Both the position numbers and the translations under genes were made by a program. Below are positions 20,669-26,711 of a DNA stretch of 64,000 bases, in pieces. How positions within the stretch are numbered: the stretch's first letter is position 1; every line of letters begins with the position of its first letter. The DNA comes from Escherichia phage WPEC5: sequence record PV654397.1. One strand, written 5' to 3'. The notes beneath the pieces are model-generated. The model was not told the DNA's origin. It ran no database searches and saw only the letters and a list, made by a program, of their open reading frames with translations.

Positions 20669-23398
20669 TTAATGCCAACGTGTACCAGAGCTTGAAGGAA
20701 CACCAGTACTTGCTGGGATAGCAGAACCACGCTTGGTCGTACTAGGTCTGTATGTCAAGAATCGTGTTACCTTTTCCGTATCAATTGACGTGATACTCGT
20801 ACTTCCAGTAACAATATCACCAACGTATACGTTTGTCAATGTCTCATCAAGAAGAGTGGTACTGATAACGTATGCCGCTTTTCTTGTGTTACGGTTCATT
20901 TGAATGTAAAGATAAAAAGTACTGTTAGCTGGGTTAGTTTTAATAGTACTTAATTCTATGTTTTGAATCGCTAATCTATCAAACATACCTCCAAGGAATA
21001 CCGGAACTTCACGGGTGAAGTACACAGTGAAACCTTCAGCAACATCTTGTGAAACTACTACGATTTTATCTTGTACAGTTCCTGAACCATCAATCAACCC
21101 ATCCATCTGTGCTGATGTTGTCCCGAAGAGACTAAACACTGCTTTGGTTTGATAATCTGAATCTTGTAGATGATAGTATCCAAATCCAACACCTGGTATA
21201 ACTCCGTGCTGGAATGCATTGCCATTATCTATGTAGCTGGATGACATAAAACGGTTAGATGTAATCAAACCATTCACTGTTTTAGCAATCATCAATTTGA
21301 ATTGAGCATTACCTGGTTGTGAAAACTGATGAACTGCATCAACCCCAATATAACCAAAGCCAGAATACTTTGCAACAGTTAGACCAGTACAGCGTTTCAT
21401 ATAGGCTTCAGTTACAATACCTGTTACAGAATTAAGTGTTTCGTATCTAGAACTCACCATAGTCGCAGAACTAATATTGGTTCCTGAAATTGTAACATCA
21501 ACTTCAGAATATATTGCATAACCTTGGTTATTGCCTAAGTTATATGCAGAAACCACCGCAATAGATTTTGAGAAAGAACTATCTGGTACATAATATAAAG
21601 CAATTTTACCAGTAAATGCTCCTACTATTCCAATATTAGCAAGTATTTCTTGTTTTAATGTTTCTAGAACATTATCACCAATTGTATAAGAACCATCAAA
21701 TTCTAAAGTATCTGGGTTAAACAAACCACCACTTGTTTTGTATACACCTTCAATGAATGATGTCCCATAGCATTTAACTGAACCGTCAGTGTCAATTAAT
21801 GAAATCATACCTGTATATTTGTAGTTGTCGCCGAGGCGAATTCGGTTGGCTTGTGGTGCAAAACCATTAAGTGTTGTATTGTTTTGTACTGAATTGAACT
21901 GGAAGGTTGGTTCAGTACCAATTTCAGAAAATACTGTATTGTTATAGCCATATGACTCATCTTCATATGTTCCAGAACATGCTAACAGTACTTTACGTTT
22001 ATCAATAAAACGTGTTCCTAAAAGGTTTTCACCTACTGCACTACCATATGTTGGTGCAACGTTTACAAATTTAGAATTGTTCGCTTTGCGAGTACTGGCA
22101 ACCCAACTATCATATGGTGTTCCTGTTACGTTATAAACCTGAATACCATAGGTTTCAGAAGAACTCCAACGAGCACGAGTACTGAATACTAAACCGTCAT
22201 AGGTTTGGCATATAGAACCAACGTTACCTAATTGCGGAACACCTAACTGTGTACCCATGAAGTTGTTCATCTCAATGGCAAATGGGTTTGTTAATGTGAA
22301 TCCATCAACATCATTATATTCCGCTGCTATTGGTGCTCTACTACTTCCATCAATTGATAATGATTTAGAGTTGATAGTATAAACAAAACTAAAACCACTA
22401 GCATAAACAGTACTAATATATAGATTTGATACTAAACGGTTAGTTGGGAATAATGTAATTCTAATCTTTGATAAATCGGGACTTACGTTTGCTTGTATAT
22501 TATAATCTGTATAATCTGAATATTCAACTCGTGTAACTGGTGAAGTGCATTCAAATAATGAATCACTACTAGTTCCAACTGAATATAATCTTTCATAAAT
22601 TTTCAAATTATTAGCACTTGTGTAGTTAACACTTCTTAAGGTTTGACCGGAAAAACCAGTAACCTTAGCAAAAGTACTCATAGTACCATCTTTAATACTA
22701 CTTGTATTAACAGTATATAATGTTAAAGCCAAACCATAGTTTGCTATAGTAGTGTCTTTGCACCACACAAATACTTTATCATTGACGATATGTGCATATA
22801 ATGGTTTATCTGTACCAAATGATGTAGCAGCGATAGAAGCGTGAATATGTGCAACTTCGTTAAATGTACCATTTGTTAAAGTGAAAATATAATTACTTGC
22901 ACTAGATAGGCTAACTAGTAATTCATAACCATTCGTTCCGATGAACTGTTTAACATTTTCAGTACTTGGAAGAATTCTAGGATGATATTTTGATGTAGTA
23001 CTGATAACACTACTTTGTGTCAGTGCATCAATATTACGTAAATCACGAATAAATGCGTAGTAATATCCTTCAGTACTACCATTTGTACCAGCACGTAATA
23101 CCACACCAGTACCATCATCTTCGACTATTGTTGGTTGCATACGGTATACATCTGAAAGCGACGTTGCCCCTTCGTATGAACCATTAACGTTTAATGGTAG
23201 ATAATCCATTTCCCCTATACGGGAGATTGGTAACATATCAAGTATTTTTTGAACTTCTGATCTTTTATAAATTGGATAGTCAACAATACCTGTATTTGCG
23301 TCTGGTGCTGTACCATTAAAAGTACGCATAGCGTACTTTCCACCAATTGCCAAATTTCCAAGTATAGCAGCACTACCAATGATGCGTTTGGATGACAT
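20669..23398 (-). CDS. tail-fibre-like / receptor-binding-like large protein (909 aa)
   Basis: S/T/N/G/Y-rich; shares N-terminal LPIS.YG module and ~110-aa C-terminal module with two neighbours. Confidence 0.55.
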   Translation of the reverse strand: MSSKRIIGSAAILGNLAIGGKYAMRTFNGTAPDANTGIVDYPIYKRSEVQKILDMLPISRIGEMDYLPLNVNGSYEGATSLSDVYRMQPTIVEDDGTGVVLRAGTNGSTEGYYYAFIRDLRNIDALTQSSVISTTSKYHPRILPSTENVKQFIGTNGYELLVSLSSASNYIFTLTNGTFNEVAHIHASIAATSFGTDKPLYAHIVNDKVFVWCKDTTIANYGLALTLYTVNTSSIKDGTMSTFAKVTGFSGQTLRSVNYTSANNLKIYERLYSVGTSSDSLFECTSPVTRVEYSDYTDYNIQANVSPDLSKIRITLFPTNRLVSNLYISTVYASGFSFVYTINSKSLSIDGSSRAPIAAEYNDVDGFTLTNPFAIEMNNFMGTQLGVPQLGNVGSICQTYDGLVFSTRARWSSSETYGIQVYNVTGTPYDSWVASTRKANNSKFVNVAPTYGSAVGENLLGTRFIDKRKVLLACSGTYEDESYGYNNTVFSEIGTEPTFQFNSVQNNTTLNGFAPQANRIRLGDNYKYTGMISLIDTDGSVKCYGTSFIEGVYKTSGGLFNPDTLEFDGSYTIGDNVLETLKQEILANIGIVGAFTGKIALYYVPDSSFSKSIAVVSAYNLGNNQGYAIYSEVDVTISGTNISSATMVSSRYETLNSVTGIVTEAYMKRCTGLTVAKYSGFGYIGVDAVHQFSQPGNAQFKLMIAKTVNGLITSNRFMSSSYIDNGNAFQHGVIPGVGFGYYHLQDSDYQTKAVFSLFGTTSAQMDGLIDGSGTVQDKIVVVSQDVAEGFTVYFTREVPVFLGGMFDRLAIQNIELSTIKTNPANSTFYLYIQMNRNTRKAAYVISTTLLDETLTNVYVGDIVTGSTSITSIDTEKVTRFLTYRPSTTKRGSAIPASTGVPSSSGTRWH

Positions 23399-26711: not shown

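Follow-up and report, generated by a model that had tools for sequence, protein, structure and literature searches.

A terminator-bounded triad of paralogous genes with shared end modules and a predicted propeller body in an Asteriusvirus-type jumbo coliphage

In the 64,000-nucleotide stretch of Escherichia phage WPEC5 analysed here (record PV654397.1; hereafter the window), the nucleotide-metabolism genes nrdD and nrdG are followed by a cluster of three consecutive genes for proteins of 898, 195 and 909 residues, here called p1, p2 and p3 (Table 1). Intergenic gaps of only 12 and 16 nt separate the three genes, and an AAGGA-type ribosome-binding site precedes each of them. The region from 20000 to 27500 is 98.7% identical to Escherichia phage Turkey3, 97.5-98.5% identical to vB_Ec-M-J, EC.P1, fEgEco12, Ecwhy_1, WPEC3, CMSTMSU and TH47, and about 79% identical to PBECO4, 121Q, phAPEC6 and G17. 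These relatives are all Asteriusvirus-type jumbo myophages of 320-386 kb, and, judged by this kinship, the source of the window is an Asteriusvirus-type jumbo coliphage as well.

Table 1. Features of the three-gene cluster and of its flanks, in window coordinates and in the order of transcription.
Feature	Position	Strand	Residues	Remarks
Terminator-like hairpin	26765-26783	-		AAGCACCCAATGGGTGCTT then T-run, directly after nrdG; G+C-rich
ATAAATA motif	26745-26751	-		40 nt upstream of the p1 ATG; candidate T4-late-type promoter
p1	24015-26711	-	898	N-segment at residues ~1-61 (26529-26711)
p1 body	24393-26528	-	~62-773	all-beta, propeller-type (predicted); model and profile
p1 C-module	24018-24392	-	774-898	BLASTP and profile match
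p2	23415-24002	-	195	body-less paralog
p2 N-segment	23775-24002	-	1-76	
p2 C-module	23418-23774	-	77-195	shoulder-like beta-sandwich, then tail
p3	20669-23398	-	909	N-segment at residues ~1-72, then homologous body
p3 C-module	20672-21040	-	787-909	
Terminator-like hairpin	20640-20661	-		8 nt past the p3 stop codon; closes the three-gene unit

Sequence comparison confirmed that the three genes are paralogs. The two long proteins align by BLASTP in a single colinear, full-length alignment (26% identity, E=2e-58), in which identity is 33-41% over the first ~120 residues, 14-35% in the middle and 43-46% over the last ~150. The short protein matches p1 in two separate blocks, residues 77-195 against 774-898 in the C-module (E=1e-17) and residues 1-65 against 1-60 in the N-segment (E=2e-5), the latter spanning LPLSQYG/LPISHYG; against p3, the C-module aligns with E=3e-22 and the N-segment with E=2e-4. 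Compared with a profile of 40 long proteins, p2 matches positions 7-61 and 774-897 and nothing between, and by this alignment it is confirmed as the shared N-segment joined to the shared C-module, without a body. An earlier note on this DNA, made from the letters alone, had placed the three minus-strand reading frames exactly and had seen in their products a common N-terminal LPIS.YG region, a common C-terminal module and a short protein consisting of these two modules alone; the pairwise alignments and the profile bear this out, with significant similarity at both termini. The composition rich in S, T, N, G and Y that it described is likewise real by residue counts (S 9-12%, T 10-11%, N 5-10%, G 8-9% and Y 5.5-6%). 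Its scheme of an N-module, a variable insert and a C-module survives as a three-part architecture but not in its view of the insert, the centres of the long pair being homologous to each other rather than unrelated.

The same division into long and short proteins is found in the PHROG database, where the kinship between the two is not recorded. In PHROGs, phrog_3573 matches both long proteins (E 4e-232 and 3.6e-264) and phrog_26864 matches the short protein end to end (E 2.9e-83, positions 1-195 of 195); both are listed as of 'unknown function' and are kept as separate families, with the same end modules and with the body deleted in the short one. Among Pfam families, none matched the cluster proteins at E<=1 except DUF5484, whose score was sub-threshold (E 0.13), and none matched 16 diverse relatives at E<=0.01. 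Sequence and profile searches of the PDB returned nothing below an E of about 1 for the cluster proteins; the BLIP-II repeats that were the only PDB sequence matches (E about 1) were dismissed as chance. Cluster look-ups for ten diverse family members yielded no informative names. A family profile search found the module in 496 of 1.84 billion cluster representatives, 287 of them at E<=1e-10, with lengths that group at ~165-250 and ~890-1000 residues and a few larger proteins that bear the module internally. When 185,579 genomes of bacteria and archaea were scanned for the conserved C-tail pattern, no relative turned up, and at the sensitivity of that scan the family looks phage-restricted.

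A monomeric AlphaFold2 model of the 898-residue protein, built on a 40-sequence alignment, reached a predicted local distance difference test score (pLDDT) of 84.2 and a predicted template modelling (TM) score (pTM) of 0.77. Residues ~80-770 are modelled with pLDDT >90 as an almost wholly beta structure of ~53 strands, and pLDDT is below 50 for residues 1-61 and 867-898. A Foldseek search with the model returned propellers only, at low TM-scores, among them DPP4, GH43 enzymes, sialidases and the receptor-binding proteins (RBPs) of phages phi11 and NF5. The body resembles lectin, glycosidase and sialidase propellers at 5-11% identity, its top two structure matches being non-enzymatic lectins, and in the model it has the fold shared by five- and six-bladed beta-propeller lectins of the AAL type, sialidases and GH43/GH130 proteins. 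The body is hence predicted to be a globular propeller-type assembly of the kind typical of carbohydrate recognition or processing. A possible internal copy of the C-module within the p1 body (residues ~588-659) was dropped, its domain independent E-value of 5-60 not being significant.

In the model of p2, the C-module comprises a shoulder-like beta-sandwich at residues ~70-165 (pLDDT >90) and, after it, a conserved tail rich in G, S, T and P (~25-30 residues in the family) that ends in Trp; in all three window proteins the chain ends at this conserved Trp. The predicted sandwich has the shoulder fold known from RBPs and from the N-terminal domain of TssK of the type VI secretion system (T6SS). 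The shoulder of the lactococcal phage p2 RBP and of TssK takes up an arm or loop of the baseplate (RBP-Dit and TssK-TssG, respectively). In cyanophage A-1(L), it is by the shoulder domain that the trimeric fibre is fastened to the baseplate wedge (PMC10966104). According to the models, the C-module alone is folded in the way that is typical for anchoring domains of tail fibres and RBPs. PDB profile and single-sequence searches found no sequence homology to solved shoulder domains, and the module is C-terminal in all three proteins rather than N-terminal with a neck and a distal head behind it; because it departs from the group in both position and sequence, we call it shoulder-like and not a member. 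Two distant short members of the family, P0097 and P0111, carry an extra domain of 130-280 residues past the conserved Trp and also bear an N-terminal motif of the NPH..T..Q.G type; their order, as read from sequence, is the canonical one, with the shoulder anchor first and the distal domain after it. The N-segment, conserved over ~60-75 residues with an LP[IL]SxYG motif, is unstructured in the monomer model. The earlier note had called the proteins fibre-like, and here the structure prediction decides otherwise: there is neither a beta-helix nor a fibrous shaft in the 898-residue model, and the body is globular.

The genes of the cluster are probably not early. By its sequence, the hairpin after nrdG sets the nucleotide-metabolism genes apart from the cluster. 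It is kept in 13 of 14 Rak2-like loci, and the GenBank record of G17 has ARNOLD terminators annotated at the places of both hairpins. Likewise, 13 of the 14 loci, from several genera, have ATAAATA 38-44 nt upstream of the ATG of the first cluster gene, where it is usually the sole coding-strand copy in the 14-19 kb locus; in phAPEC6 and 121Q, the full T4 late consensus TATAAATA stands at this promoter position. The hallmark of a T4-type late unit, (T)ATAAATA at promoter distance and conserved in relatives, is thus found at the cluster. On both strands of the window, ATAAATA occurs 4 times against 36.5 +/- 6.5 in shuffled sequence, a ~9-fold depletion, and TATAAATA once against 9.3 expected, and such scarcity would fit a functional late-promoter signal under counter-selection. 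Only two copies of ATAAATA lie on the coding strand; the second, at 35155-35161, is 195 nt upstream of a 185-residue open reading frame (ORF) at 34409-34966. A scan for sigma-70 promoters was uninformative (35 sites against 34.4 expected). In phages CBB and GAP32, ATAAATA upstream of structural genes has been proposed as the late promoter, and a gp55-like sigma factor is encoded (PMC5259590). Taken together, these signals suggest that the three genes are probably one autonomous, terminator-bounded transcription unit, for which we infer late timing.

Products of related genes have been found in phage particles. The ortholog of p1 in phAPEC6, gp323c (98.6 kDa), belongs to the structural proteome determined by electrospray ionization tandem mass spectrometry (PMC7247149). 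The ORFs of p3 and p2 are intact in phAPEC6 (MK817115, 6667-10000) yet unannotated, and a spurious 37-residue coding sequence is annotated within p3; the lack of p2 and p3 from the phAPEC6 mass spectrometry table may therefore be uninformative. CBB has three long paralogs, CBB_147, CBB_148 and CBB_149, beside nrdD and nrdG, the last being of the p3 type, and the homologs of CBB_148 and CBB_149 in GAP32 (GAP32_144/145) were detected in GAP32 virions (PMC5259590 Table S1). In chimalliviruses, the annotation of the homologs is that of virion structural or tail proteins. The evidence from purified particles comes from the literature on orthologs, namely phAPEC6 gp323c and GAP32_144/145.

The site occupied by the cluster also points to host recognition. 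In Klebsiella phage RaK2, nrdD, vs.6, nrdA.1, nrdG and ORF524 are directly followed by the tail-fibre and tailspike cluster ORF525-534, and neither our profile search nor the CBB comparison table shows a member of the family in the RaK2 slot after nrdG. In phages of E. coli, Cronobacter, Pectobacterium, Erwinia, Serratia and Yersinia, the slot holds the propeller-protein family. Across genera, then, the place after nrdD-nrdG looks like a slot in which host-recognition genes can be swapped. Homology to phAPEC6 ends at window position 17360, and only small ORFs occur in the window stretch beyond it (~13000-17360, compared with phAPEC6 1-3360). In phAPEC6, the tail fibre gene gp314c (105 kDa, detected in virions by mass spectrometry) lies ~3.4 kb beyond the cluster; tblastn found no match to gp314c anywhere in the window. 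The stretch up to 17360 may be a second variable region beside the cluster that is relevant to host range.

To follow the cluster across relatives, every ORF of 25 related loci was compared with profiles of the short and the long family. An ordered triad is conserved, in which the position of the short form differs. The order is long-short-long in Asteriusviruses (the window, phAPEC6, 121Q and three uncultured genomes), long-long-long in CBB, GAP32, Serratia BF-like and Yersinia fHe-Yen9-04-like genomes, and short-long-long in four uncultured genomes of 355-371 kb. In more distant jumbo phages, a short member accompanies two long ones in loci L018 and L019, Proteus phage 10 and Deimos-Minion (gp18/19/20), a long and a short member occur in L022-L025, and L020 has five members; it is only in distant relatives such as phage EL that the long profile fails to recognise the centre. 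Two of the four short-long-long genomes (L013 and L014, uncultivated viral genomes of ~355-358 kb from IMG/VR; locus 8370-10076) have a third member of only 568 residues, which lacks profile positions ~442-761 and keeps both end modules and the first half of the body. This half-deleted protein suggests that the body has at least two separable parts.

The short forms appear to descend from different members of the triad. For both of its modules, the best BLAST match of the window short protein is the middle long paralog of CBB-like phages, with summed scores of 144-164 bits against 51-121 for the other positions, whereas short proteins in first position best match long proteins in first position (188-206 bits against 68-127). 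The end-points of the body deletions coincide with the domain borders of the model, at about residues 60-78 and 774-797. A neighbour-joining tree of the C-module resolves the p1, p3 and long-p2 clades and nests the first-position short forms within the first-position clade. The body has thus apparently been lost at different positions of the triad, independently. The earlier note had envisaged modular exchange of a central receptor-binding domain. A role in host recognition is plausible, but a swapped central cassette is not what the comparison with related phages revealed: the two bodies in the window are colinear homologs, and relatives vary in the presence, absence or partial deletion of the body. 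The short family holds a length of 190-202 residues down to 41% identity, and the ratio of nonsynonymous to synonymous substitution rates (dN/dS) against phAPEC6 is 0.20 for p2, 0.086 for p1 and 0.13 for p3, rough values with dS near saturation; on these values, the short gene is under purifying selection.

The explanation that we favour, with somewhat more confidence than doubt, is a late operon of low-copy, virion-borne, glycan-recognising accessory proteins that dock through their shared end modules. The end modules would form the assembly and docking part, which probably trimerises and plugs into the periphery of the tail or baseplate, and the propeller body would be the part that recognises glycans and possibly cleaves them too. 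The N-segment and the shoulder-like C-module with its tail would hold the proteins on the particle and probably also to each other. A trimeric neck may be built from the C-tail, and the disorder of this tail in the model of a single chain would then be accounted for. The 195-residue protein would be the middle member of the triad, from which an internal deletion has removed precisely the body domain; with both end modules left for assembly, it would fill a docking or oligomerisation slot without a binding body, as a placeholder.

Several observations weigh against this explanation. The shoulder is N-terminal in every solved example, and here it is C-terminal with nothing past the tail. The N-segment and the C-tail are modelled with low confidence, and their docking role is accordingly a conjecture. 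In the 40-sequence alignment, the invariant polar residues of the body are D92, R99, H183, S448, S494, R509, K701 and D739; there is no invariant carboxylate set and no invariant Glu. Enzymatic activity of the body is unsupported for want of such a carboxylate set, and glycan binding is also unproven. In the C-module tree, the short forms of Asteriusviruses share a long branch with further short forms and do not group with the CBB-type middle paralogs; the p2 orthology that synteny and best matches suggest is thereby neither confirmed nor refuted, and with this placement the origin of the short form by deletion from p2 is probable, not certain. Virion detection of gp323c in phAPEC6 rests on 4 unique peptides and 5.6% coverage (PMC7247149), and in the virion proteome of CBB itself CBB_147-149 all went undetected (PMC5259590 Table S1).

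A further, unlikely possibility within the same framework is that the triad makes one obligate hetero-oligomer, or that its three proteins chain head to tail through their end modules. The hetero-oligomer might be, for example, a pseudo-threefold heterotrimer held by three shoulder-like C-modules and interlaced tails. Subunits that shed the propeller body and keep the docking modules would then make for receptor-binding complexes that are asymmetric and display one to three bodies, and jumbo-phage lineages would each have tuned body valency independently. If true, either arrangement would amount to a principle of assembly new to phage host-recognition proteins, in which the shoulder is split or C-terminal and a binding body is inserted.

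Among explanations of another kind, the one that survives best, though we consider it improbable, is that the proteins are purely an architectural scaffold of the tail or baseplate periphery, in a role like that of phiKZ gp26/gp27/gp130, with no receptor-binding or enzymatic function and with the short form as a lattice spacer. Low-copy virion proteins with both end modules conserved and a body that is dispensable at some positions would suit such a scaffold, homologs lie among baseplate or virion structural genes in Proteus phage 10 and Deimos-Minion, and elaborate peripheral frameworks are known from jumbo-phage baseplates (PMC13250141). However, the body resembles propellers that bind or process carbohydrates, and the cluster sits in the slot that holds the tailspikes of RaK2. 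The first half of the p3 body, its most divergent part (63% identity to phAPEC6), evolves fastest between close relatives, as a host-facing surface would. In addition, the family profiles detected no homology in phiKZ gp15-49 or gp119-184, regions that encode framework proteins and include the gp131 cluster and the 898-residue framework protein gp27.

It is quite unlikely that the bodies act as glycosidases or depolymerases and strip away surface polysaccharide in the manner of tailspikes, rather than serving as simple adhesins. The two best structure matches are non-enzymatic lectins and identity to all matches is low, the invariant polar residues of the body are few and include no Glu, and Pfam gave no glycosidase match.

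Still harder to maintain is a head-to-tail polymer in which the disordered N-segment or C-tail of one subunit enters the shoulder socket of the next; on phAPEC6, CBB and fEgEco12 such chains would make up the hair-like whiskers, and the short form would be a link or cap. Both conserved termini are disordered in the monomer models, and shoulder trimers take up peptide arms or loops in solved systems (phage p2 RBP-Dit, TssK-TssG). The proteins of the whiskers in phAPEC6, CBB and fEgEco12 are unidentified, and the DUF7941 proteins of phage Goslar are a precedent for a head-to-tail fibre built from short and long paralogs. We rank this explanation low on account of the CBB proteome: the hairs of CBB are abundant and stable, yet CBB_147-149 were not among the proteins detected. 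Peptide coverage in phAPEC6 is low as well, GAP32 has the family and is not reported to be hairy, and a globular propeller body of ~100 kDa ill suits a thin hair of 119 nm. Finally, the suggestion of the earlier note that co-orientation with early genes might betray non-virion surface or decoy proteins, expressed early with the nucleotide-metabolism genes, is hardly credible: only the adjacency to nrdD and nrdG speaks for it, orientation carries no information because every window ORF of at least 120 residues is on the minus strand, the proteins have no secretion signal, and the terminator behind nrdG, the conserved late-type motif and the homologs in phAPEC6 and GAP32 virions all argue against it.

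Some features of the neighbourhood and of related records deserve mention. Directly downstream of the cluster, at 18998-20598 on the minus strand, lie three tandem small paralogs of 169, 173 and 188 residues (mutual BLASTP E=2.7e-15, 5e-5 and 2.4e-5), preceded by a near-consensus sigma-70-like promoter, TTGACG-17-TATAAT, at 20650-20622. CBB has a single counterpart-sized gene at their position, CBB_150, and that they number three beside a triad may be coincidence. Between nrdD and nrdG, a 108-residue ORF (27236-27562, minus strand) overlaps the start of nrdG by 23 nt; its equivalents are annotated as DUF4326 in the G17 and fEgEco12 records, and RaK2 has vs.6 and nrdA.1-like genes instead. The match of the region 20000-27500 to vB_Ec-M-J (OQ718158) and TH47 (MT446416) falls into two pieces spanning ~8.5-8.7 kb; by implication, these two genomes carry an additional ~1-1.2 kb, which may be a mobile element inserted close to the nrd genes. 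In CMSTMSU (MH494197, 6665-12576), the three genes are in ~7 fragments, two of them labelled 'minor tail protein'; the breaks are probably sequencing frameshifts, as the record is flagged UNVERIFIED_ORG.

Asteriusvirus and other Rak2-like jumbo phages have been isolated for therapy and biocontrol, and their host-recognition parts are largely unassigned; in phAPEC6, 83% of the genes are without a function. From the present analysis, three of these genes gain a domain map and a role that can be tested, and two PHROG families of 'unknown function' are joined as one. Earlier literature already contained the paralogy of CBB_147-149 and the detection in virions, and PHROGs already listed the family as two unannotated entries. 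To this the analysis adds an assignment of folds, a connection between short and long proteins as one family, an ordered triad whose members have lost the body apparently independently and precisely at domain borders, the conserved frame of a late-type promoter and a terminator, and the slot held in common with the RaK2 tailspikes. The recurrent loss of the body, with the end modules under selection, amounts to a natural experiment on which parts assemble and which part binds, and its pattern could guide the engineering of host range.

Comparison with known systems places the cluster proteins close to several of them without making them a member of any. The shoulder systems, namely lactococcal phage p2 ORF18, the phage 1358 RBP, the long tail fibre gp34 of cyanophage A-1(L), SPP1 gp22 and the N-terminal domain of T6SS TssK, share with the C-module a likeness in predicted fold and no detectable sequence similarity. 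Unlike in these systems, a propeller body of ~700 residues lies here between the N-segment and the sandwich. The tail-fibre and tailspike (depolymerase) cluster of RaK2 and phiKp24 occupies the same slot downstream of nrdD-nrdG and its products are virion proteins; these are unrelated to the family (no profile matches), being tailspikes of beta-helix types and a branched fibre apparatus encoded by ten genes as against three here.

The DUF7941 proteins gp22 and gp23 of Goslar are, like the proteins described here, short and long paralogs of a jumbo phage, and some members of that family have carbohydrate-binding domains. In them, a disordered segment is predicted to bind a globular domain of the next subunit, which provides a conceptual parallel. 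In contrast to the low-copy proteins of the cluster family, they are very abundant in virions, and no match to DUF7941 was found in Pfam, assuming its presence in the copy searched, for the window proteins (E<=1) or for relatives including the chimallivirus homologs (E<=0.01). The closest functional analogue is the set gp131-gp135 of phiKZ, which are tandem jumbo-phage paralogs with a shared docking region; one of them has a beta-propeller with a presumed host-binding role, and the members assemble together at the fibre sites of the baseplate (PMC13250141). The phiKZ paralogs share the N-terminal region only and have the propeller at the C-terminus, whereas in the family described here both termini are shared and the predicted propeller body is internal.

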